DNA of 64,000 nucleotides from a virus (taxonomy: Duplodnaviria; Heunggongvirae; Uroviricota; Caudoviricetes). The translations under genes were made by a program, and so were the position numbers. This document shows positions 2,423 to 63,102 of the stretch, one piece after another; within the stretch, counting starts at the first letter, position 1; each line of letters opens with the position of its first letter. Location: positions 1 to 64,000 of IMG/VR virus record IMGVR_UViG_3300027749_005140; one strand, 5' to 3'. The notes under the pieces are model-generated. The model was not told the origin of the DNA. It saw nothing but the letters and a program-made list of their open reading frames with translations, and did not search any database.

Positions 2423-4321
2423 ATGGTAGAACAGATTTTGGGCTATTGGCCCGTACTTTTAACGCTCGTATGTATCGTTATGTACAAATTCATTTTTCGT
2501 GTATTTTTTGGACTAGTCATTGTTCCTGAGGACAAGGTTGGTTTAGTAACGAAAAAATTCGTTCTTTTTGGAGACAATAAAGAACTTAGTGGTGATAGAA
2601 TCATCGCAGTAAACGGTGAAGCAGGTTTACAAGCTAAAATGCTTTCTCCTGGTTTACATTGGTGGATGTGGCCTTGGCAGTACTCTGTTGATATGCAGGC
2701 ATTCATCGTTATCCCAGAAGGACATATTGGATTAGTTTCTTCTAAAGATGGTAGAGTTCCTAAAACTGGACGTATCTTAGGACGTAGAGTTGAATGTGAT
2801 AATTTCCAAGATGCGGTAGCTTTCCTTAATAACGAAGGACAAAAAGGACGTCAGTCTGCTTATATCACGAATGGTACTTATAAAATCAACACTCACTTAT
2901 TTGAAGTGTCTGCAGTTAAACAAGTAAGTGTACAAGAGAATATGGTTGGTATTGTAACTACACTTGATGGTGAACCACTTAACACTGGTCAAATCGCAGG
3001 AGAACCTGTAACAGGACACAATAACTTCCAAGACTTTGATACATTCTTATCTGAGGGTGGTAATAGAGGTTTACAACAACAAGTAATTCTTGCGGGTTCT
3101 TATAACTTAAACCCTTGGGCAGTACAAGTTGAAGAGGTTCAAATGACTGAAATTCCTATTGGTAATGTTGGTGTTGTTATTTCTTATGTTGGTGCTGATG
3201 GTGTTGACTTAACTGGTGCTAACTTCAAACACGGTAACTTAGTATCTAAAGGACAAAAAGGTGTTTGGGCTGAACCACTTGGACCTGGTAAGTATGCAAT
3301 CAACAGATATACAAATCGTATTGAAGTTGTACCTACTACTAACTTAGTTCTTAACTGGGCAAATGCTAGAACAGAGTCTCACAACTTAGACAAGGGATTG
3401 AGTACGATTACAGTACGTTCTAAAGATGGTTTCCCATTCAACTTAGACGTTTCTCAAATCATTCACATTCCAATGACAGAAGCACCAAAAGTAATCGCTC
3501 GTTTCGGTTCTATGTTAAACCTTGTATCACAAGTATTAGAACCAACAATTGGTAACTACTTCCGTAACTCTGCACAAGATTCAGACGTTATTGCTTTCTT
3601 ATCTACTCGTCAGATTAGACAAGATGCAGCTAAAGCTTCTATCTCTGCAGTACTTGAAGAGTATAATGTTCACGCAGTAGATACCCTAATTGGAGACATT
3701 ACTCCACCAGAGTCTTTGATGAAAACTCTTACTGACCGTAAGATTGCAGAAGAGCAACAAGTGACTTACGAGACACAGAAAAAAGCTCAAGTTCAAAGAC
3801 AAACTCTTGAAAAAGAAACTGCTATTGCAGATATGCAAGGTGAGTTAGTAAAAGCTGACCAAGGTGTTCAAATCTCTGAGAGATTGGCAGACTCTGCAGT
3901 AAAAGACGCAACTGGTAAAGCTCGTTCAGTAAAAATTGCAGCAGAAGCTAACGCCGAATCTACAACATTGAATGCTAAAGCAGAAGCTACCAGAAAAACT
4001 CTTATTGGAGATGCTGAAGCTAACGCTATCTTAGCAGTAGGTAAATCGACTGCAGAATCTTACAGATTAGCTGTTGATGCAATGGGTCAAGATAACTTCA
4101 CGACTTATAAAGTAACAGAAGAAATCGGTAAAGGTAATGTGAAAATTATGCCAGACTTACTTATCAACGGTGGTGGTCAAGGTGGAAATGGTTCATTAGA
4201 TGGACTACTTGGAGTTCAAATCATGAATATGATGGGTAAAGGTTTTAAAAATCTTGAGACAACAGAAATTCCTGCTGAAGTGGTAGTAACAACTACCGAA
4301 GATAAAAAAGGAAAAAAATAA
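2423..4321 (+). CDS. SPFH/band-7 flotillin-like membrane protein
   Basis: N-terminal TM helix, SPFH-like core, long Ala/Glu/Lys-rich coiled-coil C-terminus typical of flotillin/YqiK; terminator follows. Confidence 0.6.
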   Translation: MVEQILGYWPVLLTLVCIVMYKFIFRVFFGLVIVPEDKVGLVTKKFVLFGDNKELSGDRIIAVNGEAGLQAKMLSPGLHWWMWPWQYSVDMQAFIVIPEGHIGLVSSKDGRVPKTGRILGRRVECDNFQDAVAFLNNEGQKGRQSAYITNGTYKINTHLFEVSAVKQVSVQENMVGIVTTLDGEPLNTGQIAGEPVTGHNNFQDFDTFLSEGGNRGLQQQVILAGSYNLNPWAVQVEEVQMTEIPIGNVGVVISYVGADGVDLTGANFKHGNLVSKGQKGVWAEPLGPGKYAINRYTNRIEVVPTTNLVLNWANARTESHNLDKGLSTITVRSKDGFPFNLDVSQIIHIPMTEAPKVIARFGSMLNLVSQVLEPTIGNYFRNSAQDSDVIAFLSTRQIRQDAAKASISAVLEEYNVHAVDTLIGDITPPESLMKTLTDRKIAEEQQVTYETQKKAQVQRQTLEKETAIADMQGELVKADQGVQISERLADSAVKDATGKARSVKIAAEANAESTTLNAKAEATRKTLIGDAEANAILAVGKSTAESYRLAVDAMGQDNFTTYKVTEEIGKGNVKIMPDLLINGGGQGGNGSLDGLLGVQIMNMMGKGFKNLETTEIPAEVVVTTTEDKKGKK

Positions 4322-4340
4322 TAAAATCCTTTTTAAGAAA

Positions 4341-4385
4341 AAACACCCCTATTTTTTAATAGGGGTGTTTTTATTTATAATTTTT
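4341..4385 (+). terminator. rho-independent terminator
   Basis: aacacccctatttttt / aataggggtgtttttattt hairpin plus T-run. Confidence 0.7.
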
Positions 4386-4398
4386 AATATATACAATT

Positions 4399-5145
4399 AT
4401 GTACAATAAAATATATGACTTCTGTAAAGTAAGAAATGAAGGAACTATCTATGATAATAATTCACAGACACCTCCTCCAAGAGTTCAATTTTTAATGGAA
4501 CTTTTAGATTCGGAAGGTATTAAATATGAATTAGATAAGTTTTATACTTCTGAAGTTACCGGATATAATCTTATTCTACAGGGAACATCAAATAGGATGG
4601 TTGTTGCACATCATGATGTAAGTAATCCTAACATAGATAATGCAAATGATAATAGTGCGTCAGTAATCAATGCAATAATGATTAAGAAGCTTTTACCAAC
4701 AATGAATGTAATTCTATTAGATGGTGAAGAAGTTGGGGGTGTAGGCTCTAATAGAGCTTCAGAACTAATCAATAATGGTAAGTTTGGTGATATAGAATGG
4801 GTACTTAATTTAGAGTTAAGTGGTAAAGGTGGTAAACACTTTTTCATCGGAGATTATCCAGGACCTTTAACAGATCACATTAAAAATATTTTTGATTGTC
4901 CAATAGTTCGAACACCTTTTAATGACTCAGTTACATTTAGAAGAAATGGAATTGATTCAGTAGTTATAAATCCATTACCTCCTGTTTTAGAAGGTAAAAC
5001 AAATGTTAAATGGAATGAAGATACATATTTAGATTACTCTATGTTATTTAATTGTCATTCATCAAAAGACACGATTGCAACAATTGATCCAACAGATATG
5101 AAAGAATTTGTTGAAGATGTTGTTTTAAAAATATTAACATATTAA
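4399..5145 (+). CDS. M28-family zinc peptidase-like protein
   Basis: VVAHHDV (H-x-D), DNSASV (Asp), LDGEEVGGVGS (EE-x-G-x-GS) resemble the M28 aminopeptidase metal-ligand motifs. Confidence 0.45.
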   Translation: MYNKIYDFCKVRNEGTIYDNNSQTPPPRVQFLMELLDSEGIKYELDKFYTSEVTGYNLILQGTSNRMVVAHHDVSNPNIDNANDNSASVINAIMIKKLLPTMNVILLDGEEVGGVGSNRASELINNGKFGDIEWVLNLELSGKGGKHFFIGDYPGPLTDHIKNIFDCPIVRTPFNDSVTFRRNGIDSVVINPLPPVLEGKTNVKWNEDTYLDYSMLFNCHSSKDTIATIDPTDMKEFVEDVVLKILTY

Positions 5146-6333
5146 ATGAGAAGTTTAACCAAGTATGATGAATTTATTGTAGAGAAACTTATATTAGAAC
5201 AGCTTCTATTAGAGTCTAATGTAATTTATTCTAGTAAGTTTAAAAAAGCACTTACAAAATTACCGGATAATGAAATAGCTCAAAAGTTATTAGAAATAGA
5301 AAATAAAGACTTAGAAGTAGTTTCTAACTTCTTTGATATAAAAATAGACAATGATAATATATTGACATTTACTCCTGACAGAGTTGCACAACAAATACTT
5401 GAAGATACTAGAGAATATGTAAATTATGTTGGCCGTAGAGGTGGTTGGTTGACTAATAATGTTAGAACTAACGGAGCTATCTTTGCAAGACTTGGATTTA
5501 CTCCTACAACAGAAGAGGTATTTCATCCAAACAATAATCTTATTGGTGAAGTAATTAGTGAAGTGACCTCTGAAAAAACTCATAAAACTTGGTGTTATGT
5601 TAAGTTTCCAACTGGTGAAGGTGTTTATAATAGAGAAAAGTTAAGAACTATTGTTGATGATAAACAAAAGATAGTATTTACTAAAAGTAGACAAGAAATA
5701 AGAATTGGTAGAGCAGTTAGGATTCTATTGACTGCATATAACTTCAATCCAACCGCTGCAGCGATAGAAACATTTGTAAATGAGTTTAGAGCAGTCTTGT
5801 CAATTATGAATGATGTATTCTCACGATTTGAGATAGTCGAAGGTGATGATTTAGGATTCTGGTATCATAGAAGAAACTATGAGTTTCCACACCAAGGTAC
5901 ATTAGGAGGATCTTGTCAAGCAGTTGGAAATCTTGATTGGTTAGAAATTTATATTAAAAATCCACAAACCGTTAAACTACTTATGTTAAAGTCAGAAAAC
6001 TTTGATAATAAAATTATTGGTAGAGCACTTCTTTGGACATTAGATGATGGTAGACAAGTAATGGATAGTATTTATACAAGTAAAGATTCTGATAGAAATG
6101 TATTTATTGAATATGGTAATGCAAAAGGATATCTACAAATGAATTATAGTGATACATTTGTTGCTCATATAAATCCTGGTGAATTTGATCAATATCCATC
6201 AGTTGATAATATGAATAATTGGGATCCAATAACTGGTAAAATTAGTAATAGAAGTTTTCCAGGTTCAAGAGGTATAATATGGAGTGAGAATGATGGTGAT
6301 GAAGAATGGGATGAAGACGATGATAACTGGTAA
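5146..6333 (+). CDS. hypothetical protein, paralog family A (acidic C-terminus)
   Basis: Shares SKF..L..IEN..FTPDR, IY(I/V)KNPQ, GRA(L/I)LW, IYTS(K/N)DSD and an acidic tail with the ORF at 50467..51696. Confidence 0.4.
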   Translation: MRSLTKYDEFIVEKLILEQLLLESNVIYSSKFKKALTKLPDNEIAQKLLEIENKDLEVVSNFFDIKIDNDNILTFTPDRVAQQILEDTREYVNYVGRRGGWLTNNVRTNGAIFARLGFTPTTEEVFHPNNNLIGEVISEVTSEKTHKTWCYVKFPTGEGVYNREKLRTIVDDKQKIVFTKSRQEIRIGRAVRILLTAYNFNPTAAAIETFVNEFRAVLSIMNDVFSRFEIVEGDDLGFWYHRRNYEFPHQGTLGGSCQAVGNLDWLEIYIKNPQTVKLLMLKSENFDNKIIGRALLWTLDDGRQVMDSIYTSKDSDRNVFIEYGNAKGYLQMNYSDTFVAHINPGEFDQYPSVDNMNNWDPITGKISNRSFPGSRGIIWSENDGDEEWDEDDDNW

Positions 6334-10472: not shown

Positions 10473-13400
10473 TTAACTATCTTGTGTTTTTCCTATATAA
10501 GATGGTATTACAATTGGTGTTGTAATATCAAATGTATTTATTACATTTTCATCAATAGTATATTTTTGTAAATAATCTTTATTTGTACTACTATAAACAG
10601 TTTCCAAATAATACTTTAAATCCCAAGTTGATGAGAATATAAAAAAGTCATAAATAGAATATCCAAACTCATCTAACATAGGATATATTGACTTTTCGTC
10701 ATTTATGTTACCTAATCTTAATATATTTCCCTTTCTATTGATTTTTCTAATTTTTCTTTCTTTCATTAAACCAAAATCATTTAATATGGTATCAAACTTA
10801 TAATTACCACCAGATGGTATTCCATTAGAATCTCTTTCAAACAATTGAACATCATAAAATACTGGACTATAATAACCACTATATCGGTGTATTTCATGTG
10901 AAATTATATTTTTATTACCATGATAATTCTCAAATACTTTAGGTGGATATTTATTTTCAATAATATTTGCCGCAACTGGAATATTATTATAATAATTTAA
11001 TTGTGTTATATCTATTATTCTACCACCATCCAACTTTTTAATTGGATTTAATGTATTCGGAAGTTCAACTGCTCTTTTAAATAAAGAGTTCACTTTAACA
11101 TCTAATTTATCTGGTTCTTCACACTTTAATAAATATGGTAAATCTTTTATATTACCACCATCTACATCTGAATAACTATATTTTTTAATATTATTATTTT
11201 CATCAATAACAACATATGATACATAATTACTAAACCCATATTTATTAGTAATATCATTGATAGCATTGGTAAAATTCGATGCAGTTAGTTTCTGATTTAC
11301 ATCATTGTATAAAATATCTCTATTTGAATTAGATATATTTGGTGTTGTACCATCACTTATATTTATATTTACTAATATATTTTTCCATTTTTTATTGATA
11401 TAAATAATAATACCATTATTAAGACCTGAAGAAGTGGATTGTCCACCACCAACTAAAATATTATATCTATTATTTAATTTAATTATTGAACTTGTACCAA
11501 CAACTGAATTAAATGACTTATCTTTTCTTTCTATCCAGTAGTTTGATTGTAATGGATTAGTACCCGGTAATACTGAAATACTACTAGTTCCATTCCAATA
11601 TAATTTATAGATACTATTATTATAAACAATATTACCAGAAAATGTTCCATCATAAGTGTATTGTTTAGTTGAATTCCAAGATTCTATTATTTCCCACTTT
11701 GATTGAGTGTACGAAGACATAGTCCAAGTATTCATAGTTGGCTTAAAGTAATTATCACCAATCAATGATGTATAATAATTATTCTTATAGATAACAATTG
11801 ATGCGGTTGTATAACCAGTTGTAATAGATTTTCCTGGGTTCCAAAAATCAATAATATTAGATTCTGATGCACAGTAATAATATTCTCCTGAATTATATAC
11901 AACTGATGGACCAGTAGCACTTATAAATGAGCTATATGCAGTTACTAATGGTGACCAAAAAACACTATTTTTATCATTATAAAATCCCCATTTTTGTGTA
12001 TATGGAGCAGATGGTATTGTAATACCATATGTTGCAAATATTGGATTATTAGTAGTATTTGAAGAATATCTATAATATAGAATATCATCATGTAAAACCT
12101 TTGAAGCATTTGCCCAAGCAGTTCCACCATATACATATTGTTTATCCATCTTCCATTCATCAATAACACTCCAAACAAGATTACTATCTGAACTAGTGAG
12201 TCCAATTATTTTACTTTTATCAATATTATCAAATATTGGAGAAGAGTTATTATCAGATAATAAAATAGAAAATTTATAATCATCAAATGAATTAGATGAT
12301 TTTATATTGATTTTATCAATTTGATTATTTGTATTGATTGTAATACTACTAACATCATAAATATCAAATTTTATACCTCTAAATAAAGTATGATTTGGTA
12401 CAGATTCATCACCAACATTAAAATATGAATACTTATTAGTATTCTTTTTAATTTTACCATTAAATAATTTAGTGGACTTACCAAACAAATATGAAAAATA
12501 GTCATATGGGTATGGTGATGTTGATTGAGTTGATGTAATAGAATATGTAAAGTTTAAATACTTATTTAACTCAAAATTAAACATATTATCTATAGTATTA
12601 TTACTATTTAGATTCTGTATATGTAAACTATGATAAACATATGATGATGATGCGGAGTTTATTGTATAAAAATAATCTAAATTTCTTTCAGATCTTATAG
12701 GATATGGTTCGTAAATATTAACAGTTCTATTAAAATCTTCAAAAATTAAAGAATTATTCAATGAATATGGTAGATCGTTTGCGGAAAGTGATTTGTGAAA
12801 TCCCCATTTACAATAAACCGGATTTTTTCTCCATATTTCAGAAAGATCATTTCCATCTATCTTAAATGTTTCATAATTTGCAGTATATTCAGAAGATGTT
12901 GGTATATTAACTATATTATTTTTATAATTAAAATCATCCAAATTTATAGGATCTGTTAAACCACGTATATCTTCTAAATACATTTTTGTTTCATCAGTGG
13001 AAGTAATATTAGTAGATTCCTCATATTCATATTTAGAATAATCGGTATCAACAATTCTTGTATCAAAATCTTTTATATCACAAAAATTAAGTTTATAAAT
13101 TGAAAACTTTTTAGGTGAATTATTAAAATCAACTACTGTACTAACCTTTGTTGATTCTCCACGAACTTTATATGTAAAGTCATTTTGATTAAAAATAAAA
13201 GAGTAGTCTGTACTAACCATTATGTTACCATCTATCTTAACTAAATTATGGTATATTCCATCTATCTCAATTACCCAAACATCAGCATCATCAAACTCTG
13301 TCATCTGGAAGCTTTTTACACCACTACTATCATTAGTGATAAGTTTATTAGCAATATCTATCTCAGCATAATTTTGATTAAAACTAGATGCCGTTAGTCC

Positions 13401-23570: not shown

Positions 23571-24145
23571 TGGAAGAAATAGATTATTTATATGATCTAA
23601 TTAGTAAAACAGAGACAACCTTAATTGGTTATCGATTTTCAGATGAAAGAATTAAAGATGAAATTATTTCTAATCTTGGAGGAACCAAGATAATAGATTT
23701 AAGTTCATCTTTTTCTATGAAGTCAATCCTTAGAGATATGAAAATTGATCAAGTTTTAAATGAAGAAGAAAAACTTGAGTATCTATTATTAGATATAAAT
23801 GATATAAGAAATTCTTATATTAAACAAAGAAATTTTACTAATGAAGATATAAACCGGGCAGGTATAATAAAAAATACTATTTACGATATAAGAGATTGTT
23901 TAAGAGATAGTAGAAATGGTAAAGATATAAATGATATTAAATTGATAATTACTTGTCCACTACAATCTAATGGTTTAAATAAAGATAATAATATGATTGA
24001 TTCTTTTATAGGTGGTTCAACACCTTTATATTTGGCAGATTTAGCAATGGTTATAACTCAACAAAGTAATGATAAAGTAATACAAGTCATTAAGAATAGG
24101 GAATCAGATTTCCACAAAATTATAAAATATGATAGCATTAAATAG
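23570..24145 (+). CDS. hypothetical protein
   Basis: ORF. Confidence 0.3.
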   Translation: MEEIDYLYDLISKTETTLIGYRFSDERIKDEIISNLGGTKIIDLSSSFSMKSILRDMKIDQVLNEEEKLEYLLLDINDIRNSYIKQRNFTNEDINRAGIIKNTIYDIRDCLRDSRNGKDINDIKLIITCPLQSNGLNKDNNMIDSFIGGSTPLYLADLAMVITQQSNDKVIQVIKNRESDFHKIIKYDSIK

Positions 24146-24560
24146 AAGAGCACGTTATGAATATACGTTCATAGAAGAATTTGACTGCGGAATAATATTG
24201 GTCGGTAGTGAGGTAAAATCAGTTAGAATGGGTAATGTTACTTTAATCGATGCGTTTATTTTTATAAAAGATAATGAAGTTTGGATAAAGAATCTAAAAA
24301 TTGCTGCTTATAAATCAGCACATACTTTAGACATACACGAAGAAAATCGAGATAAAAAACTTCTTTTAAATAAAAAAGAGATTGTACGAATCAAAAGAAA
24401 ACTGGAAGATAAAGGTATAACCGCAATTCCACTTGGTATGTTTGTTAAGAATAACAAAATTAAAATTAAAATAGCTGTGGCTAAGGGTAAGAAAACTTGG
24501 GATAAAAGAGCTTCAATAAAGGAAAGAGATCTTACCAGAGAGATGCAACGAAATATATAA
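24129..24560 (+). CDS. smpB: SsrA-binding protein SmpB
   Basis: Full-length match to SmpB: IALNRRARYEY, GSEVKS, KLLLNKKE, AIPL..F, KIKIAVAKGKK.WDKR..IKERD. Confidence 0.85.
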   Translation: MIALNRRARYEYTFIEEFDCGIILVGSEVKSVRMGNVTLIDAFIFIKDNEVWIKNLKIAAYKSAHTLDIHEENRDKKLLLNKKEIVRIKRKLEDKGITAIPLGMFVKNNKIKIKIAVAKGKKTWDKRASIKERDLTREMQRNI

Positions 24561-24563
24561 TAT

Positions 24564-26837: not shown

Positions 26838-27242
26838 ATGAATTTAAAAGAACAAATTAGCAAAGACTACATGATAGCTTTCAAAGAAAGAAATATCGTA
26901 GCAAAAAACTTACTTTCTGTAGTGAAAGGAGAGATCCAAACTATTGAGAAGAATACTAGTGTTGATTGTCTTTCTGATGTAGAAGTAGTTAAAATTCTTA
27001 ATAAAACTGCAAAGTCTTTAAATGAGGTTATTTCATTAAATGGTGATGAAGAGTCTAAATTACAATTAAAAATTGTAGAAGCTTTTCTTCCAACACCTTT
27101 AACTAAAGAAGATATTGTTATTAAAGTAAATGAACTAGTTGCATCTGGAATTACAAATGTTGGTGGTATTATGAAAGAGTTTGCTACTTTACATGTAGAT
27201 AGAAAAGTTGTATCAGAAGTTATTAAAGAAGTATTAGCATAA
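26838..27242 (+). CDS. GatB/YqeY-domain protein
   Basis: Colinear with YqeY (MNLKEQI..DYM.AFKERN..LLSVVKGEI.....EAFLP..LT.EDI). Confidence 0.6.
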   Translation: MNLKEQISKDYMIAFKERNIVAKNLLSVVKGEIQTIEKNTSVDCLSDVEVVKILNKTAKSLNEVISLNGDEESKLQLKIVEAFLPTPLTKEDIVIKVNELVASGITNVGGIMKEFATLHVDRKVVSEVIKEVLA

Positions 27243-28498
27243 TGAAAAATATAGTAGAAGAATTACAATGGCGTGGGTTAGTACACGATATAATACCCGG
27301 AACGGAGGCTCAACTTTTAAAAGAAGCCACCACCTCTTATATTGGTTTTGATCCAACGTCAGATTCTCTACACATTGGGAGTTTAGTTCCCATCATTCTT
27401 CTAAAACATATGAAGAATTTTGGACACAATCCTATCGCACTTGTTGGTGGGGCTACTGGTATGATCGGTGACCCCTCTGGTAAGTCAAATGAAAGAAATC
27501 TATTAGACGAACAAGAACTTAATAAAAATGTTGAAGGTATCAAAAATACTTTGACCAGATTTTTAGGTGATACTCCTGTAGTAAATAACTACGATTGGAT
27601 GTCAAAGTTTAGTTTCATAGATTTTGTAAGAGACATCGGTAAAAGAATTACTATAAATTACATGTTATCAAAACAATCTGTAAAGAACCGTATCGAAGGT
27701 GAAGGAATGTCTTTCACTGAGTTTACTTACCAGTTGATTCAAGGATACGATTTCTACCATCTAAATAAAGAGTATAACTGTTTATTACAAATGGGTGGTT
27801 CAGATCAATGGGGTAACATTACAACAGGAACTGAACTAATTCATAAAATGAATCCTGGTAGGGAAGCTTTTGCTATGACATGTCCTTTACTAACTAAATC
27901 GGATGGTTCTAAGTTCGGAAAATCTGAAGGAGGTACAAACATATGGTTAGATAAAGATAAGACCTCTGTGTACAAGTTTTACCAATTTTGGATAAGTACT
28001 GATGATAATGATGCAGAGAGATATATTAAAATCTTTACATTTTTAGATAAAGAAACTATTGATAATTTAATAGAAGAGCATAATAAAGCAAAACACTTAT
28101 TTTTGTTACAAAAAACATTAGCAAGAGAAATAACTATTATGGTTCACGGTCAACAAGAGTTTGAAAAAGCAGTAGAAGCTTCTAACATTTTATTCAATGG
28201 TGGAGATTTAAACTTACTTGATGAAGAATTATTCTTAGATATATTTGGTGGAATACCACAAGCGAAAGTTCCTATGGAAGATATTCTTGCTGGTATTACA
28301 ATGACAGACATTCTATTTAAAACAGGTTTCTTAAAATCAAATAATGAAGCTAGAAGAGCTTTAAAAGAAAACTCTGTTGCAGTAAATAAAATAAAGAGAG
28401 AGGAAGACTACATAGTAACAGATGTTGATTTGATAAATGATAAGTTTATCATACTACAAAGAGGTAAGAAAAGTTACTTCTTAGTTGAAGCATCATAG
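27242..28498 (+). CDS. tyrS: tyrosyl-tRNA synthetase
   Basis: YIGFDPTSDSLHIGSLVPI (HIGH region, here HIGS), VGGATGMIGDPSGKS, KFGKS, C-terminal S4-like domain. Confidence 0.85.
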   Translation: MKNIVEELQWRGLVHDIIPGTEAQLLKEATTSYIGFDPTSDSLHIGSLVPIILLKHMKNFGHNPIALVGGATGMIGDPSGKSNERNLLDEQELNKNVEGIKNTLTRFLGDTPVVNNYDWMSKFSFIDFVRDIGKRITINYMLSKQSVKNRIEGEGMSFTEFTYQLIQGYDFYHLNKEYNCLLQMGGSDQWGNITTGTELIHKMNPGREAFAMTCPLLTKSDGSKFGKSEGGTNIWLDKDKTSVYKFYQFWISTDDNDAERYIKIFTFLDKETIDNLIEEHNKAKHLFLLQKTLAREITIMVHGQQEFEKAVEASNILFNGGDLNLLDEELFLDIFGGIPQAKVPMEDILAGITMTDILFKTGFLKSNNEARRALKENSVAVNKIKREEDYIVTDVDLINDKFIILQRGKKSYFLVEAS

Positions 28499-29475: not shown

Positions 29476-29533
29476 TACTATAAAAATAACAAAAAAACAA
29501 AAAGAGAGAATAAACTTTTAATATATAATAACA

Positions 29534-29644
29534 ATGAGAACAAATTCAATACATACAAGCTTTAGTAAGTCGTTCAAGTGGTTTAGCCACAAGTTCGGAT
29601 GTATGAGTATGTCGTTCTCAAAAGAAGATGTTATTGTAGGATAA
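29534..29644 (+). CDS. leader peptide 1 (36 aa) of tRNA array 1
   Basis: MRTNSIHTSFSKSFKWFSHKFGCMSMSFSKEDVIVG; Lys/Phe/Trp/His codons mirror the downstream tRNAs. Confidence 0.45.
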   Translation: MRTNSIHTSFSKSFKWFSHKFGCMSMSFSKEDVIVG

Positions 29645-29674
29645 TGTCATAAAAGAGAATAAAACATAAACGTA

Positions 29675-29707
29675 AACCCGAACTTAAAATTAAGTTCGGG
29701 TTTTTTT
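29675..29707 (+). terminator. rho-independent terminator/attenuator 1
   Basis: aaacccgaactt aaaatt aagttcggg + ttttttt. Confidence 0.7.
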
Positions 29708-29716
29708 ATTTTATAA

Positions 29717-29789
29717 TCCCTCTAAACATTGTTGGTGGATGTACCAGACTTTTAATCTGGGAAGGTGGTTTCGATTACCACAGGGGGAA
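29717..29789 (+). tRNA. tRNA-Lys (anticodon TTT)
   Basis: Hand fold: acceptor tccctct/aggggga, anticodon loop cttttaa, T-arm gtggt ttcgatt accac. Confidence 0.55.
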
Positions 29790-29795
29790 CAAAAT

Positions 29796-29868
29796 ACAGG
29801 TCAGCATAATGGTATGCACCAGGTCTCCAAAACCTCGGATGGAAAGGGTTCGACTCCCTTGGCTTGTG
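29796..29868 (+). tRNA. tRNA-Trp (anticodon CCA)
   Basis: Acceptor acaggtc/ggcttgt, loop ctccaaa, T-arm aaggg ttcgact ccctt; D-arm slightly atypical. Confidence 0.45.
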
Positions 29869-29875
29869 CAAAAAA

Positions 29876-29948
29876 GTGGAGGTAGCTCAGTTGGTAGAGC
29901 ACTACCCTGAAGAGGTAGGTGTCGCGGGTTCGAGCCCCGCTCTCCACA
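29876..29948 (+). tRNA. tRNA-Phe (anticodon GAA)
   Basis: Acceptor gtggagg/tctccac, D-arm tagctcagttggtagagc, loop ctgaaga, T-arm gcggg ttcgagc cccgc. Confidence 0.65.
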
Positions 29949-29955
29949 CAAATAT

Positions 29956-30044
29956 GGTGTTTGTAACCGGTAAAGGCAGCCGACCAGATTGTGAATCTGG
30001 AATGAATTAATTTTCTAATGCGGGTTCGAATCCCGTCTCACACC
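29956..30044 (+). tRNA. tRNA-His-like (anticodon GTG) with G-1 and expanded variable region
   Basis: Extra 5' G, anticodon loop ttgtgaa, T-arm gcggg ttcgaat cccgt; 19-nt variable region and two acceptor mismatches. Possibly degenerate. Confidence 0.35.
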
Positions 30045-30062
30045 CTAAATTCTCCCTCTAAA

Positions 30063-30135
30063 CATTGTTGGTGGATGTACCAGACTTTTAATCTGGGAAG
30101 GTGGTTTCGATTACCACAGAGGGAACTAAGTCTTT
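30063..30135 (+). tRNA. tRNA-Lys (anticodon TTT), second copy
   Basis: Near-identical (1 nt difference) to the copy at 29717..29789. Confidence 0.55.
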
Positions 30136-30195
30136 GTAACTTATTATAAAGGAGCCACTAACTTATTAATATATAAATAAAAATTATTATTATAT

Positions 30196-31233
30196 ATGAT
30201 AAGTTGTAAATTTTGTAAAAAAGTATATATAGGACGTAATAAAAATAAAGATGTTTTAATACATGAGTCCCATTGTATTCTAAATACAGATAGAGTACCA
30301 TATATATGTAATATATGTGATATGGAGTTTGATAAAAGACATTCTTTAATAGGACATAAAAGTCATTGCGGTAATTTAAAAGTTAGGAAAAAACGGATTA
30401 CAAAAGAGAAAGTAATTAAAATACACAAATGTAAATACTGTGATTCAATATTCGAAAATGGTTATAAATTGGGCGGACATGTATCACATTGTGATAGAGA
30501 TCCAGAATATGAAACTAAGAGGAGAAAAATGTGTGATAATATCTCTTTTCTTAATAAAGGAAAGAAATTATCAGATGAAACTAGAAAAAAAATATCAAAT
30601 AGTAGAAGAGAATATTTAAAAAATAATCCAGATAAAGTTCCCTATCTATTAAACCATAGTAGAAATGAATCATATCCTGAGAAATACTTTACTGATGTTT
30701 TTTTAGATAGAAATATTAGTGTAATAAAATCTTACAGAATTGGATTATATGAATTAGATTTTTGTATTTTAGATAAAAAAATAGATATAGAAATCGATGG
30801 TGGTCAACACTATTTAGATAATAAAATTATTGAAAGTGATAAAAGAAGAAATAAATATCTAGAAGATTTAGGTTGGGATATAATTAGAATAAAATGGAGT
30901 GATTATCAATTGTTGGATAAAGATTCTAAAAGAGAATTTATTGATAATATAATCTATTACATAAATGGTCTGGTAAAAACTAAACCAACATTTGAAATAT
31001 TAGATAATAAAAATTATTGTAAATGTGGTATAGAAATATACAAATGTTCTAAAATGTGTTCTAAATGTGATTCATTTAGACAAAGAAAAGTTGAAAGACC
31101 TTCATTAGAGCAAATTTTAAAAGATATAAAAGAAACAAACTATGTCTTGACCGGTAAAAAATATGGTGTTAGTGATAACACTATAAGAAAGTGGATAAGA
31201 CAATATAATGCGGATTTAGCTGAGACGGTTTAG
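30196..31233 (+). CDS. homing-endonuclease-like protein: 3x C2H2 zinc fingers + DUF559/Vsr-like PD-(D/E)xK nuclease + C-terminal HTH
   Basis: CxxC..HxxxH x3; YELDF..IDIEIDGGQHY..D.RR..L..GWDIIRIKW core; stop codon lies inside the D-loop of the following tRNA. Confidence 0.55.
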   Translation: MISCKFCKKVYIGRNKNKDVLIHESHCILNTDRVPYICNICDMEFDKRHSLIGHKSHCGNLKVRKKRITKEKVIKIHKCKYCDSIFENGYKLGGHVSHCDRDPEYETKRRKMCDNISFLNKGKKLSDETRKKISNSRREYLKNNPDKVPYLLNHSRNESYPEKYFTDVFLDRNISVIKSYRIGLYELDFCILDKKIDIEIDGGQHYLDNKIIESDKRRNKYLEDLGWDIIRIKWSDYQLLDKDSKREFIDNIIYYINGLVKTKPTFEILDNKNYCKCGIEIYKCSKMCSKCDSFRQRKVERPSLEQILKDIKETNYVLTGKKYGVSDNTIRKWIRQYNADLAETV

Positions 31234-31281
31234 CGTATGGTTGAAAGCCATAAGAGGTCAATTCGATTTTGACAATCCGCA
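31210..31281 (+). tRNA. tRNA-Phe (anticodon GAA), second gene
   Basis: Acceptor gcggatt/aatccgc, loop ttgaaag, T-arm gtcaa ttcgatt ttgac; 5' 24 nt overlap the endonuclease ORF. Confidence 0.5.
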
Positions 31282-31285
31282 CAAA

Positions 31286-31422
31286 TAGAAAGTAGCTCAA
31301 TTGGTAGAGCACGTAATCATACTTAGTCAGTCTTTCTCTAAGAAACTCTCTTAGTAGCAATGAAATAAGTTACTTCGCTCTGTTAAAGCCGTGGTTGTGG
31401 GTTCGAGTCCCACCTTTCTATC
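31286..31422 (+). tRNA. tRNA-like gene with ~65-nt internal insertion
   Basis: Perfect acceptor tagaaag/ctttcta, canonical D-arm tagctcaattggtagagc and T-arm gtggg ttcgagt cccac, but 87 nt between D- and T-arms. Confidence 0.3.
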
Positions 31423-31464
31423 AGATAAATAAAAACAAAGAATAAAATTTTAATATATAGTAAT

Positions 31465-31542
31465 ATGAAAACAATTATCACAACATCGTCAAGTTCGTCT
31501 AGTCGCTCAAGTAATTTGAGGGAGGTTCTGTTGTGCTCATAA
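31465..31542 (+). CDS. leader peptide 5 (25 aa), Ser/Arg-rich
   Basis: MKTIITTSSSSSSRSSNLREVLLCS; upstream of tRNA-Arg and three tRNA-Ser. Confidence 0.45.
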   Translation: MKTIITTSSSSSSRSSNLREVLLCS

Positions 31543-31564
31543 TTGATATAAAAAATTAGTATGA

Positions 31565-31609
31565 AACCCACAGACTTCAAAGTTTGTGGGTCTTTTGTTT
31601 TTAATTGGT
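31565..31609 (+). terminator. rho-independent terminator/attenuator 5
   Basis: aaacccacagact tcaa agtttgtgggtc + ttttgttttt. Confidence 0.65.
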
Positions 31610-31678
31610 TCCATCGTTTAACGGATAGGATAGGTCGCTACGAACGATCAGGTGGGGGTTCGATTCCCTCTGGAATCA
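31607..31678 (+). tRNA. tRNA-Arg (anticodon ACG)
   Basis: Acceptor ggttcca/tggaatc, anticodon stem ggtcg/cgatc, loop ctacgaa. Confidence 0.5.
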
Positions 31679-31687
31679 CAAATATAT

Positions 31688-31770
31688 GGAGGGTACCGCT
31701 AAGGTAGCAAACTGGGCTTGAACCCCAGGGGTACGGGCAACTGTACGGGTTTCGATTACTCTACCCTCTT
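31688..31770 (+). tRNA. tRNA-Ser (anticodon TGA), class II
   Basis: Acceptor ggagggt/accctct, stem ctggg/cccag, loop cttgaac, long variable arm. Confidence 0.5.
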
Positions 31771-31776
31771 CAGAAT

Positions 31777-31862
31777 AGTGAGTAAGCCTTGATGGTGATA
31801 GGGTCTGCCTGGAAAGCAGTACGTACGTTTAGATGTATAGGGTTCGATTCCCTTGCTCACTA
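31777..31862 (+). tRNA. tRNA-Ser (anticodon GGA), class II
   Basis: Acceptor agtgagt/gctcact, loop ctggaaa, long variable arm, T-loop ttcgatt. Confidence 0.45.
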
Positions 31863-31870
31863 CAAAATAT

Positions 31871-31956
31871 GGAGGATGAATTCACTGGGTAGTGGACGCA
31901 GTTTGCTAAACTGTTGGTGCGTTAAATCGCATTGGGATCGAGACCTACTTCCTCCG
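31871..31956 (+). tRNA. tRNA-Ser (anticodon GCT), class II
   Basis: Acceptor ggaggat/ttcctcc, stem gcagt/actgt, loop ttgctaa, variable hairpin tgcg ttaaat cgca. Confidence 0.4.
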
Positions 31957-31960
31957 CATA

Positions 31961-38496: not shown

Positions 38497-38598
38497 ATGA
38501 CAACAATTACTAACATAACAATAGCTATCGAAGCCATAGGCGGGTATGAAGCGGGGTATATTATACCATCGGTCAGAAGCGTTATGTCTATAAAGTAA
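38497..38598 (+). CDS. leader peptide 3 (33 aa), Ile/Thr/Gly/Glu/Tyr/Ala-rich
   Basis: MTTITNITIAIEAIGGYEAGYIIPSVRSVMSIK; resembles thr-operon leader; codons ATA, GAA, GGC/GGG, TAT, GCN match the downstream tRNAs. Confidence 0.45.
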   Translation: MTTITNITIAIEAIGGYEAGYIIPSVRSVMSIK

Positions 38599-38627
38599 TG
38601 AGTTGAAAAAAACATTATTATATAACA

Positions 38628-38667
38628 AACCCAATCTGACTTAAAAATCAGATTGGGTTTTTTTATT
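38628..38667 (+). terminator. rho-independent terminator/attenuator 3
   Basis: aacccaatctga cttaaaaa tcagattgggtt + tttttt. Confidence 0.7.
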
Positions 38668-39800: not shown

Positions 39801-39977
39801 CAAAAAATAAAAAATAGATATGAAAACTAAAGAACAGTCGCTGGACGCATTTTAGTCACAGAAGAATATAAATCTTACTGTGACGGTAATAAAACAGAAA
39901 GAATTAAAAGATCATTAGTAAAAAATGGTTCACGTAATGATAGAAAATTACAAAAATATTCTGATAAATTTAACAAA

Positions 39978-40358
39978 ATGTTTGAGTTTTATTTCAAAAT
40001 TTACAGAAGTGGTTTAGTTAAATTCTGTGGTGATATTGTTAAGGTAGACTTTGATGTAAATGGTTCAGAAGGAAAATTTGCATTTAGAGAATATGATAAT
40101 GGTCGTTTTAAATTAATAACACCTATATCAAGACATCCTAATATACTTCAATCAGTAATTATTGGTAAAAAAGGTTGGGGATTATGGGTAAGTCAATGGA
40201 CTGATGGAATTGTTGACTGGTCATTCACAAAAGAAGAAATACTAAAAGAATTTGAATTAAGAGATATAGAAATACCAGAATCACTAATGATTGAATGGGA
40301 TAAATTGATCTTAAAAAGAAAAATTATACGAAATGAGAATTATATAAAATCTAAATAA
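39978..40358 (+). CDS. hypothetical protein
   Basis: ORF followed by a terminator. Confidence 0.3.
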   Translation: MFEFYFKIYRSGLVKFCGDIVKVDFDVNGSEGKFAFREYDNGRFKLITPISRHPNILQSVIIGKKGWGLWVSQWTDGIVDWSFTKEEILKEFELRDIEIPESLMIEWDKLILKRKIIRNENYIKSK

Positions 40359-61253: not shown

Positions 61254-61309
61254 TACTATAAAAATAACAAATAAACAAAAAGAGAGAATAACATCTTAAT
61301 ATATACAAT

Positions 61310-61390
61310 AATGAAAACAACTAATCTAAATATTAACTTAACGCTGAATGTCTTATGTCTAAGACGTGAACCGGGTTTTGCCTTATTTAG
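61310..61390 (+). CDS. leader peptide 2 (26 aa), Leu/Asn/Arg-rich
   Basis: MKTTNLNINLTLNVLCLRREPGFALI; codons CTA, TTA x3, CTG, CTT, AGA, CGT match the downstream Arg(TCT) and Leu tRNAs. Confidence 0.45.
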
Positions 61391-61439
61391 AGCAAATGAT
61401 AATGTTATTGGATAACATATTATAACTAAATATACAAAC

Positions 61440-61472
61440 AAAACCCGAAATCTAAAAGTTTCGGGTTTTTTT
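61440..61472 (+). terminator. rho-independent terminator/attenuator 2
   Basis: aaacccgaaa tctaaaa gtttcgggtt + ttttttg. Confidence 0.7.
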
Positions 61473-61735: not shown

Positions 61736-62002
61736 ATGAAAGAAATAGATTATATACAGTACACATCATATACATTATTATCAAGTGGTAATGTATTTAA
61801 GGTAAATTCAGTTATGCCTTTACAAAGTTTAGACAAACACTTGAATGAAAGTACAAACTTAATTATGTTTGTAGTTCATAATATAAAGTGTAATGATAAA
61901 GAAGTAATGGTTTATAATAGAGATCTATTTAGATTTACATATGGATCAAAAGAATGTCCTGAAATGATTATGAAAATGAAACATTCACATATATTAGAAT
62001 AA
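61736..62002 (+). CDS. hypothetical protein embedded in tRNA array 3
   Basis: 88-aa ORF between tRNA genes. Confidence 0.3.
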   Translation: MKEIDYIQYTSYTLLSSGNVFKVNSVMPLQSLDKHLNESTNLIMFVVHNIKCNDKEVMVYNRDLFRFTYGSKECPEMIMKMKHSHILE

Positions 62003-62228: not shown

Positions 62229-62314
62229 TACTCTGTAATAATACAGAGAGTGTTTTACACTACTATAAATAAAGATAAACAAAAAGGGACAATAAAAATT
62301 TAATATATAATATA

Positions 62315-62404
62315 ATGAAAACAAATACTGTAAATATTAATGTGATTACGATTACGAATTGTGTGAATAACACGACTTCGGGTAAGCGATTATGTATAGT
62401 ATAA
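62315..62404 (+). CDS. leader peptide 4 (29 aa), Asn/Thr/Val/Ile/Cys-rich
   Basis: MKTNTVNINVITITNCVNNTTSGKRLCIV; AAT/AAC, ACN, GTA/GTG, ATT, TGT codons match the downstream Asn, Thr, Val, Ile, Cys tRNAs. Confidence 0.45.
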   Translation: MKTNTVNINVITITNCVNNTTSGKRLCIV

Positions 62405-62430
62405 ACTCATATATTATATACAATTTATAA

Positions 62431-62466
62431 AGACCCGAACTCAAAAAGTTTGGGTCTTTTCTTTTA
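62431..62466 (+). terminator. rho-independent terminator/attenuator 4
   Basis: aagacccgaac tcaaaa agtttgggtctt + ttcttttat. Confidence 0.7.
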
Positions 62467-62551: not shown

Positions 62552-62639
62552 TACTGGGTTGCCATAGCCAGGTCGAATGGTTCGGACTGTTAATCCGATG
62601 AGCATCGCTCCACCGTGGGTTCGAATCCCACCCCAGTAG
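62552..62639 (+). tRNA. tRNA-like, anticodon GTT, with class-II-length variable hairpin (atypical)
   Basis: Perfect acceptor tactggg/cccagta, stem tcgga/tccga, loop ctgttaa, variable hairpin gagc atc gctc, T-arm gtggg ttcgaat cccac. Confidence 0.35.
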
Positions 62640-62647
62640 CAATACAT

Positions 62648-63007: not shown

Positions 63008-63095
63008 GGCATAGTGTCTGAGTGGTCGAAAGATGCGGTCTGCAAAACCGTAATGATTAAGTTCATCATCGTAGGTTCAAATCCTACCTATGCTT
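63008..63095 (+). tRNA. tRNA-Cys (anticodon GCA) with expanded variable hairpin
   Basis: Acceptor ggcatag/ctatgct, stem gcggt/accgt, loop ctgcaaa, variable atga ttaagt tcat, T-arm gtagg ttcaaat cctac. Confidence 0.5.
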
Positions 63096-63102
63096 CAATA
63101 AT

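Follow-up and report, generated by a model that had tools for sequence, protein, structure and literature searches.

Introduction

Two described systems come closest to the locus considered here. The first is I-Bth0305I, the prototype of the EDxHD homing endonucleases, a group which includes the free-standing "Hef" type of T-even phages (PMC3239194). The second is SegB, which is encoded in the tRNA cluster of phage T4 and is reported to drive its own preferred inheritance (PMC2330249), to be tRNA-associated across phages, and to drive the segmental amplification of tRNA genes (PMC13096335). The present locus lies in a stretch of 64,000 nucleotides (nt) from a virus of the class Caudoviricetes (positions 1 to 64,000 of IMG/VR record IMGVR_UViG_3300027749_005140), the whole of which is referred to as the window. 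An open reading frame (ORF) at 30196-31233, situated within a tRNA gene array, is an intact, free-standing homing endonuclease gene (HEG) of the EDxHD (Vsr-like, DUF559) family.

The kind of gene is already known, as there are precedents both for the EDxHD family and for genes that, like SegB, reside in tRNA clusters. The new elements are the architecture with C2H2 fingers, the preference for a site at tRNA-Lys, the borrowing of stop codons from tRNA genes, and the exchange of an EDxHD for an HNH nuclease on a common module. The best explanation overall, and a probable one, is that of a free-standing EDxHD HEG cassette in a tRNA array, mobile by homing.

A Free-Standing EDxHD Endonuclease

All features of the locus are on the + strand. 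The gene, its parts and a motif which precedes it are:

30166-30175, + strand: TTAATATATA motif, second copy at the locus, candidate own promoter of the endonuclease, 20 nt 5' of its ATG
30196-31233, + strand: endonuclease ORF, 345 amino acids (aa), ATG start, EDxHD/Vsr-like
30196-30495, + strand: N-terminal DNA-binding part, three C2H2 zinc fingers, residues ~1-100 (AlphaFold, Foldseek)
30664-30945, + strand: nuclease core, residues ~157-250 (alignment, profile, Foldseek)
31009-31230, + strand: C-terminal Zn-ribbon (C275, C277, C288, C291) and helix-turn-helix (HTH) (Pfam, alignment, AlphaFold)

Three Pfam families match the protein above their curated cut-offs (given in brackets), all of them over residues 170-250: MTES_1575 with 41.3 bits (38.2), DUF559 with 34.8 (20.6) and RAP with 32.6 (24.2). 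Matches to NUMOD3, C2H2, I-TevI_ZnF and HTH_28/HTH_23 are sub-threshold, and the PHROGs matches are to homing endonuclease and HNH endonuclease families. Among the candidates scored there are 557 homologues at E <= 1e-5, many of them on contigs of 0.13-0.64 Mb; nearly all have either no name or the automatic name "very-short-patch-repair endonuclease".

In an alignment of 40 homologues, residues E162, D188, D201 and H205 are invariant and D215 is kept in at least 90%. The best PDB match of the profile made from these 40 sequences is the catalytic domain of I-Bth0305I (3r3p, E = 1.3e-3; the structure is that of the D196A/H213A mutant), and the five residues align onto its E/D/x/H/D positions. 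A PDB search with the single sequence did not return I-Bth0305I, its best matches being C2H2 fingers, RAP proteins and 3hrl. The AlphaFold (AF2) model has a mean pLDDT of 84.5 (86-95 in the core). In it, three N-terminal beta-beta-alpha fingers are joined by a helical linker to an alpha/beta nuclease core, after which come a Zn-ribbon and a helical C-terminal domain. By Foldseek, the core resembles 3r3p_B (E = 6e-4, TM-score 0.76, target-normalised), Vsr (1vsr, 1cw0) and 3hrl, and the N-terminus the C2H2 fingers of CTCF and BCL11A. This N-terminal part varies among homologues, which have three fingers, one finger, or an HTH instead.

Thus, the three features of EDxHD membership, i.e., the Vsr-type composite motif, the Vsr-like fold and the attached NUMOD/HTH modules, are all present, the module matches being weak. 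A first-pass annotation of this DNA had proposed a homing-endonuclease-type nuclease at 30196-31233, and Pfam, the motif of the 40 homologues, the 3r3p profile and Foldseek agree in this. The gene is free-standing: it lies between a tRNA-Lys and a tRNA-Phe gene and has its own start codon, and Rfam finds no ribozyme or intron family around it. The dN/dS values in comparison with four orthologues are 0.08-0.32, and the gene is therefore under purifying selection. A value of 1.4 obtained for the C-terminal module against one relative (L081, 77 codons) was regarded as unreliable, its frame and coordinates being unchecked, and was not used.

By tblastn there is no paralogue in the window; the best other match (E = 0.44) is at 39924-40205, where the ORF has no Pfam match. 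Among GenBank phages, blastn finds only distant, unannotated huge-phage relatives (67-73% identity, genomes of 635-735 kb), and each of these has a recognisable version of the tRNA array. An identical protein is encoded on a Logan contig (SRR5754829), and one that is 97% identical on a 639.6-kb ENA scaffold (L012).

A Site After tRNA-Lys and a Borrowed Stop Codon

The tRNA genes were called by a default run of ARAGORN, by a second run with intron and low-score settings, and with the Rfam tRNA model. They were typed at 85% identity across the window and the loci L012, L081, L004, L005, L013, L001 and L002. Those nearest to the endonuclease gene are:

29717-29790, + strand: tRNA-Lys(TTT) copy 1, type Lys1 (ARAGORN, Rfam)
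29796-29869, + strand: tRNA-Trp(CCA) (ARAGORN)
29876-29949, + strand: tRNA-Phe(GAA) #1, type Phe1 (ARAGORN, Rfam)
29957-30045, + strand: tRNA-His(GTG), 89 nt, variable region of 19 nt (ARAGORN, Rfam)
30053-30126, + strand: tRNA-Lys(TTT) copy 2, type Lys1, directly preceding the endonuclease cassette (ARAGORN)
31210-31282, + strand: tRNA-Phe(GAA) #2, type Phe2, 24-nt overlap with the ORF (ARAGORN, Rfam)

The ARAGORN coordinates confirm that two tRNA-Lys copies bracket the Trp-Phe-His genes, as had been proposed in the first-pass annotation. The second copy is indeed present upstream of the ORF, the spacer to the ATG being 69 nt rather than about 60. The stop codon of the ORF does fall inside tRNA-Phe#2, as had been noted, but in the 3' strand of the D-stem and not in the D-loop: the TAG at 31231-31233 corresponds to positions 22-24 of the tRNA, and the last seven codons (ADLAETV) together with the stop are tRNA-Phe#2 sequence. 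Having no stop codon of its own, the ORF relies on the D-stem of the tRNA for the TAG that terminates its translation.

Both of these features of position extend to the family. From 132 fetched loci, 82 non-redundant homologous ORFs on huge-phage contigs were surveyed for tRNA genes within 200 nt on the same strand. An upstream tRNA was found for 50 of the 82, and in 36 of these 50 (72%) it is a tRNA-Lys, typically 30-90 nt before the start codon. As only 88 of the 540 tRNAs in the same loci are tRNA-Lys, the binomial p value is 4e-18, uncorrected for relatedness. A downstream tRNA was found for 45 of the 82 ORFs; the stop codon is inside that tRNA in 21 of the 45, and a further 15 have a gap of 0-12 nt. 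In eight cases the ORF enters the tRNA by exactly 10 nt, which makes the stop codon the near-universal TAG of U8-A9-G10; others have their stop in the D-arm, or at U33-G34-A35 of a tRNA-Ile(GAT). In the alignment of 40 homologues the C-terminal tails beyond the conserved ...RKWIK are not conserved, and thus the overlap is read-through into whichever tRNA follows rather than a functional peptide.

One side observation concerns the length of the tRNA-His gene. Unusually long tRNAs (84-89 nt) of classes that normally have a short variable arm (His, Asn, Cys and Lys) occur in the window at 29957-30045, 62552-62640 and 63008-63096, and many tRNA-Lys genes of L001, L002 and L011 are of this kind. 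In the two that were inspected, the tRNA-His and one tRNA-Lys of L011, the extra length is a variable region of 16-19 nt.

Replacement and Mosaicism in Sister Genomes

The order of tRNA types and nuclease genes (in brackets) at this place is as follows:

Window and L012: Lys1-Trp1-Phe1-His1-Lys1-[345 aa]-Phe2
L081: Ile-Trp2-Lys2-Phe3-His2-[HNH]-Phe2
L004: Lys1-Trp1-Phe4-His3-Trp3-Lys3-[266 aa]-Phe2
L005: Lys3-Phe3-His3-Trp3-Lys3-[266 aa]-Phe2
L013: ...Lys5-[333 aa]-interrupted tRNA
L001 and L002 (without a HEG): ...His-Phe2-Trp-Lys-Lys-Lys...

The same slot is occupied by different nucleases, and in more distant arrays by none. L081 is 94% identical to the window in the left flank up to 29736 and 93% identical in the right flank from 31001; in between, it has different tRNA cassettes and an HNH nuclease, which has the same C-terminal Zn-ribbon/HTH and the same overlap with tRNA-Phe2 as the window gene. 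HNH genes with this C-terminal module are also found in L009 and L010. In L004 and L005 the gene is a one-finger EDxHD version of 266 aa, with homology to the window beginning at 30399. Thus, the tRNA cassette types differ among genomes the flanks of which are 85-94% identical, with breakpoints in window coordinates at ~29736 or ~29872 on the left and at ~30399 or ~31001 on the right, and the mosaicism is confined to the stretch to the left of the shared C-terminal module.

Presence and absence can be seen in a further member of the family. In L011, a cassette consisting of ~30 nt with TAATATATA, which lies 4 nt before the ATG, and an ORF of 200 aa is situated between two tRNA-Lys genes, and its junctions are the exact tRNA ends. 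The homologues of this tRNA pair (95% and 91% identical) are only 4-5 nt apart in L002 and L001, which have no HEG. There is therefore polymorphism of both kinds: presence and absence (L011 compared with L001 and L002), and replacement in the same slot (EDxHD in the window, HNH in L081). The proposal of the first-pass annotation that homing-type insertion shaped the array is borne out to the extent that the slot is a hot spot, where mobile genes turn over and cassettes are exchanged. Related genomes with the same arrangement but no nuclease gene, which that annotation had named as a refutation, were not found.

Other genes also differ among these genomes. A full-length tyrosyl-tRNA synthetase gene lies just 5' of the array in the window (27242-28498); it is present in L012 and L081 and absent from the otherwise collinear L004 and L005. 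L012 has an extra ORF of 389 aa without a Pfam match (11332-12501) between the interrupted tRNA described below and the Ser/Arg attenuator, and L081 has an extra Cys/His-rich ORF of 258 aa after the tRNA-Ser genes (5123-5899), the sole Pfam match of which is a sub-threshold C2H2 finger; the window has neither. The ORFs between Lys and Arg in L002 were considered as endonucleases and ruled out, one of them being a fragment of a class I tRNA synthetase of the Trp/Tyr type.

A Proposed Mechanism

The cassette is minimal: it comprises a short AT-rich, promoter-like leader and the ORF, and is placed directly after tRNA-Lys in what is otherwise an inter-tRNA spacer of 4-10 nt. The encoded enzyme has a Vsr-type core with interchangeable DNA-binding modules on either side. 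N-terminal to the core these are three C2H2 fingers and a NUMOD3-like helix; C-terminal to it, a Zn-ribbon and an HTH. Expression would probably be from its own TTAATATATA motif (30166) and by read-through of the array transcript. By analogy with SegB of T4/T6 and with I-Bth0305I, the enzyme would, in a co-infection, cut the conserved array DNA of a related phage lacking the HEG. The position of the family suggests that the region recognised would be that from tRNA-Lys to the next tRNA. Recombinational repair of the double-strand break would then copy the gene together with neighbouring tRNA cassettes and, over time, this would give rise to mosaic arrays like those of the sister genomes, in which nuclease domains are swapped and tRNA-Lys copies converted.

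Several points weigh against homing by this gene. The cleavage site cannot be derived from the sequence. Purifying selection and long retention beside tRNA-Lys are also expected of a domesticated gene, and the Pfam RAP match would allow for RNA binding. One old, vertically inherited insertion, rather than repeated homing to a specific site, could account for the position after tRNA-Lys; the binomial test ignores phylogenetic non-independence. No close relative (at least 85% nucleotide identity) has the same flanks and an empty site, so that homing of this particular copy stays putative; the gene may be fixed in its clade.

An Interrupted tRNA-Asn

The gene which follows tRNA-Phe#2 is interrupted; like the three tRNA-Ser genes and the leader and terminator modules described below, it had gone unnoticed in the first-pass annotation:

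31286-31422, + strand: tRNA-Asn(GTT) with a 63-nt insert at 31314-31376 (ARAGORN intron/low-score run, four-genome comparison)

Removal of the insert leaves a perfect 74-nt tRNA-Asn(GTT) cloverleaf, and perfect products are obtained in four genomes, the window included. The insert interrupts the 5' strand of the anticodon stem, between tRNA positions 28 and 29, and is 63 nt long in the window, 91 nt in L012 (tRNA at 11094-11258), 58 nt in L081 (~4305-4441) and 56 nt in L013 (6822-6951). The L013 orthologue is itself a tRNA-Lys(TTT) and has a compensatory change in its anticodon stem. The ends of the insert are conserved and pair with each other, and the interior is variable. No Rfam family matched the insert, and no bulge-helix-bulge was found at its junctions by eye. 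A group I or group II intron was rejected, the insert being too short and without an Rfam match, and so was an ARAGORN parse as tRNA-Met(CAT) with a 56-nt anticodon-loop intron, which gives a mismatched anticodon stem and an 81-nt product. An exact-pattern scan of IMG/VR found no uninterrupted allele, and found the interrupted allele only in the L081 contig. In the same place L004 and L005 have a different odd tRNA-like gene, of 93 nt, with covariation in a hairpin.

The adjacency of endonuclease and insert brings to mind collaborative homing, for which F-CphI with the psbA intron and mobE with I-TevIII are precedents. In such a case, the enzyme would target the uninterrupted form of the adjacent tRNA (of the Asn/Lys type) at 28/29, and the insert would protect the resident genome. 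An endonuclease gene adjoins the interrupted tRNA in the window, L012, L081 and L013, and the L013 orthologue is a tRNA-Lys, the very isotype to which the family is tied. However, the uninterrupted allele that would serve as target did not appear in the exact junction scan, and the best uninterrupted matches among the fetched tRNAs are ~78% identical, which is the general tRNA background. Furthermore, in L004 and L005, which do have the endonuclease, the tRNA at that place is a different odd one, and the insert has no recognisable self-splicing fold. Collaborative homing is very unlikely here.

The tRNA-Lys Repeat and tRNA-Phe#2

The first-pass annotation had suggested that the insertion came with tRNA-Phe#2 and with a segmental duplication bounded by the two tRNA-Lys copies. 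In its strict form, this would mean that the insertion brought Phe#2 and made the duplication. The two copies are near-identical, as claimed, and differ by one base (73/74 over the gene, rather than the 74/75 that had been given); as described above, they bracket Trp-Phe-His. Their identity stops within 1-2 nt of the gene ends and the flanks are unrelated. Thus, the repeat is a unit of ~75 nt, the tRNA-Lys gene alone, and not a duplicated segment. At the second slot, the flanks of the window and of L004/L005 are homologous and the tRNA body is different.

The combinations across sister genomes (Lys1 with Lys3 in L004, Lys3 with Lys3 in L005, Lys1 with Lys1 in the window and L012, and no second-slot Lys in L081) are the pattern of gene conversion or cassette replacement, and do not fit block duplication. 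In L005 it is slot 1 that has been converted, to Lys3, and in the lineage of the window slot 2, to Lys1. The two copies in the window differ by G/A, and this difference is also present in L012, so the copy is older than the split between these two; copy 2 of L012 has in addition a compensatory C-G to T-A change. Both copies keep compensatory stem changes, and both are therefore functional. That endonuclease breaks caused the conversion is plausible by analogy with SegB.

As had been noticed at first pass, tRNA-Phe#2 is divergent from tRNA-Phe#1 (38 invariant columns of 74, ~54% identity); the Rfam tRNA model gives the two genes 68 (Phe#1) and 57 (Phe#2) bits, well above threshold. This divergence, and the fact that in L013 no Phe2 follows the orthologous gene, so that its position relative to the endonuclease varies, would be in keeping with an import. 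However, orthologues of Phe2 that are 79-89% identical are present between His and Trp in arrays without a HEG (LR745206 and LR756502, i.e., L001 and L002), and in five sister genomes three different nuclease genes have Phe2 as their conserved right flank. Phe2 is therefore a long-standing member of the array, which did not arrive with the insertion. The strict form of the earlier suggestion, as a whole, is very unlikely.

Unlikely Alternatives: A Domesticated Protein or a Repair Nuclease

Another explanation, about as unlikely, is that the gene is not selfish, but encodes a domesticated nuclease or a RAP-like RNA-binding protein which acts in the processing of pre-tRNA or in the removal of the tRNA-Asn insert. 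In addition to the RAP match above the Pfam cut-off, the highest-ranking Foldseek and PDB matches include RAP-domain mitoribosomal proteins; the gene is 53 nt upstream of the interrupted tRNA in the window, L012 and L013; and it is under purifying selection. Against this stands L081, in which the same slot beside the same interrupted tRNA is taken by an HNH DNA nuclease. Moreover, nearly all of the 82 members of the family are beside uninterrupted tRNAs (by default ARAGORN, inserts not having been searched for systematically). The core is flanked by C2H2 fingers, NUMOD3, an I-TevI-like Zn finger and an HTH, the modules with which phage homing endonucleases bind DNA, and polymorphism by presence, absence and replacement also argues for a mobile gene.

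Finally, a DUF559/Vsr-type nuclease of repair or of (anti-)defence that is in the array by chance is extremely improbable, since, although some homologues are named "very-short-patch-repair endonuclease" and DUF559 is widespread in bacteria with unknown function, the family has a position-specific association with huge-phage tRNA arrays, has modular DNA-binding domains typical of homing endonucleases, is replaced by an HNH gene with the same DNA-binding module, and has as its closest solved relative a proven homing endonuclease and not Vsr.

Probable Leader-Peptide Attenuators Before the tRNA Sub-Arrays

The array in which the endonuclease gene resides begins with a module of its own, and a second such module precedes the next sub-array:

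29518-29527, + strand: TTAATATATA motif heading the Lys-Trp-Phe-His operon, 6 nt 5' of the leader ATG, putative promoter
29534-29644, + strand: leader ORF MRTNSIHTSFSKSFKWFSHKFGCMSMSFSKEDVIVG, with many residues of the amino acids carried by the downstream tRNAs (Phe, Lys, Trp, His)
29590-29599, + strand: antiterminator segment CAAGTTCGGA in the leader, able to pair with the 5' arm of the terminator
29674-29713, + strand: intrinsic-terminator hairpin, 13 bp, with T-run (attenuator), ending 4 nt before the first tRNA
31450-31600, + strand: second attenuator, with motif at 31450-31459, leader ORF MKTIITTSSSSSSRSSNLREVLLCS at 31465-31542, and terminator at 31566-31591 with T-run
31607-31679, + strand: tRNA-Arg(ACG) (ARAGORN)
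31688-31771, + strand: tRNA-Ser(TGA) (ARAGORN low threshold, Rfam)
31777-31863, + strand: tRNA-Ser(GGA) (ARAGORN low threshold, Rfam)
31871-31957, + strand: tRNA-Ser(GCT) (ARAGORN low threshold, Rfam)

Altogether the window has a putative attenuator module for each tRNA sub-array (29518-29713, 31450-31600, 38497-38659, 61296-61472 and 62300-62459), and there are ~70 further modules in the loci L001-L131; orthologues of the leader at 29534-29644 occur in ~20 other phage loci. The order within a module is a short ORF, a strong hairpin with a T-run, and the first tRNA 4-26 nt later. Between the terminator at 29674-29713 and tRNA-Lys there is no room for a promoter. The TTAATATATA motif precedes every tRNA sub-array and occurs 13 times in the window, compared with 1.9 expected (4384, 8158(-), 17890(-), 21094, 26587(-), 29518, 30166, 31450, 38155, 49645, 57239(-), 61296 and 62300), most copies being 4-7 nt before an ATG. 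This suggests that it is a phage promoter -10 element giving rise to leaderless or near-leaderless mRNAs. A scan for sigma-70 promoters was no better than shuffles (16 found, 15.2 expected).

The amino acids of the leaders correspond to the tRNAs that follow, in the window and on other phage contigs:

MRTNSIHTSFSKSFKWFSHKFG...: before Lys, Trp, Phe, His, Lys, (endonuclease), Phe
MKTIITTSSSSSSRSSNLREVLLCS: before Arg(ACG), Ser(TGA), Ser(GGA), Ser(GCT)
MTTITNITIAIEAIGGYEAGYII...: before Tyr, three Glu, Ile, two Gly, then Ala after a 225-nt gap
MKTTNLNINLTLNVLCLRR...: before Arg(TCT) and four Leu
MKTNTVNINVITITNCVNNTT...: before two Asn, two Val, two Cys, two Thr
MKTMNQQQQQQSMQSQ (Q6), other phage contig: before three tRNA-Gln
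MKNNINTLVLLLNNLLLQ, other phage contig: before five tRNA-Leu
MTKMNINKNIKKNKKR, other phage contig: before two tRNA-Lys
MMTIFGTYYYGKKSYKK, other phage contig: before Tyr/Lys tRNAs

The codons TCG, TCA, TCT, AGT and CGC of the MKTIITTSSSSSSRSSNLREVLLCS leader cover all four downstream anticodons. In 74 pairs of leader and array, a fraction of 0.215 of the leader residues matches the downstream tRNAs, compared with 0.120 when permuted (z = 10.4; 6.7 after dereplication). The match is specific to the reading frame (0.097 and 0.112 in the other frames, p ~1e-9) and holds at the level of codon and anticodon (z = 10.7). Just past the regulatory codons, at about nt 55-75, the leader is complementary to the 5' arm of the terminator (mean z -2.8; 19 of 28 below -2), and these segments differ in sequence between modules with their complementarity kept. 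In an alignment of nine Ser/Arg modules (A4), pairing reaches 95% in the terminator and the leader hairpin 1:2, where both partners have changed in eight pairs, and the antiterminator is 85% paired, with four double-changed pairs, compared with 12-54% in slid controls. All three alternative helices thus show covariation.

This anatomy, which is well supported at the level of sequence, is that of classical ribosome-mediated attenuation, applied to tRNA genes. Ribosomes stalling on the codons of scarce tRNAs would open the array which encodes those tRNAs, thereby creating a negative feedback loop. No description of leader-peptide attenuation of tRNA arrays was found in the literature, the coverage of which was incomplete, so that prior work may exist.

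As the endonuclease gene lies inside a tRNA operon apparently controlled by an attenuator that would sense the decoding of Phe, Lys, Trp and His, it is probably co-transcribed with the tRNAs upon read-through. Possibly, then, though this is doubtful, the endonuclease is a passenger in a demand-regulated operon, with leaders for Phe/Lys/Trp/His before the array and for Ser/Arg after it. A shortage of tRNA, e.g., caused by anticodon nucleases of the host, would raise both the output of tRNAs and the frequency of breaks that duplicate or exchange cassettes, and RNase P would limit the expression of the endonuclease. More speculatively, cleavage by RNase P at 31210 would remove the stop codon of the ORF, so that maturation of the tRNA and translation of the endonuclease from one transcript would be mutually exclusive. 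Any coupling of attenuation to endonuclease activity is, like this effect of RNase P, speculation.

The stretch at ~24141-24563 of the window resembles an SmpB-domain gene (PF01668) called in L012 and L013, which suggests that the phage encodes part of a trans-translation system; this would be relevant if non-stop endonuclease mRNAs arise. The three tRNA-Ser genes (31688-31957) were missed by default ARAGORN, and Rfam calls them as tRNA or tRNA-Sec-like. In tRNA array 3, an ORF of 88 aa (61736-62002) separates Leu(AAG) from Leu(CAA).

Significance

The EDxHD family is extended by a large, uncharacterised free-standing clade which has the layout of a natural zinc-finger nuclease and is specialised for the tRNA arrays of huge phages, mostly for the site after tRNA-Lys. 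At one locus there is a natural example of a nuclease-domain swap (EDxHD for HNH) on a common DNA-binding module, and the endonuclease ORFs borrow their stop codon from the next tRNA. Mobile endonucleases would help to explain the mosaicism of huge-phage tRNA arrays. The attenuators are the bigger surprise and have the higher priority. If attenuation is true, tRNA genes join the classes of genes under classical attenuation, and the long-standing question of when and why phages make tRNAs of their own could be tested directly, the answer then being that they do so on demand, upon stalled decoding of specific codons.

Comparison with Known Systems

Compared with the attenuators of trp, his, pheA and pheST, the modules described here have the same short leader ORF with a run of regulatory codons, the same 1:2, 2:3 and 3:4 helices, and an intrinsic terminator directly before the regulated genes. 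They differ in that the regulated genes are tRNAs instead of biosynthetic or synthetase genes, that one leader mixes codons for up to 4-5 amino acids in accordance with its tRNA cargo, and that the transcripts look leaderless.

The C-terminal Zn finger followed by an HTH is like the DNA-binding domain of I-TevI and the NUMOD modules in its modular, swappable architecture, whereas the matches of the window protein are below the Pfam cut-offs and the module is common to EDxHD and HNH nucleases at one locus. With I-Bth0305I the window protein shares a Vsr-like fold, I-Bth0305I being its best PDB profile match and its best fold match apart from RAP-domain ribosomal proteins; both keep the E/D/x/H/D residues with a D-to-H spacing of 17 residues, both have NUMOD-type DNA-binding modules, and both are phage-borne. 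Unlike I-Bth0305I, which is encoded in a group I intron of recA and has two N-terminal NUMOD2/HTH modules and a C-terminal nuclease, the window gene is free-standing in a tRNA array and its protein has a central nuclease, preceded by three C2H2 fingers and followed by an I-TevI-like Zn-ribbon and HTH. The sequence identity in the core is <20%.

For SegB of T4/T6, the comparison is with what the available portions of its two reports describe. The cleavage and amplification by SegB are experimental, whereas the window gene is known from sequence alone; SegB is a GIY-YIG enzyme and the window protein EDxHD; and no such overlap between ORF and tRNA is described for SegB in those portions (PMC2330249; PMC13096335). 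SegB has no isotype preference, whereas the window family follows tRNA-Lys in 72%. Both are free-standing homing endonuclease genes inside a phage tRNA cluster, and the co-conversion and amplification of neighbouring tRNAs associated with SegB is the behaviour suggested by the mosaic arrays described here.

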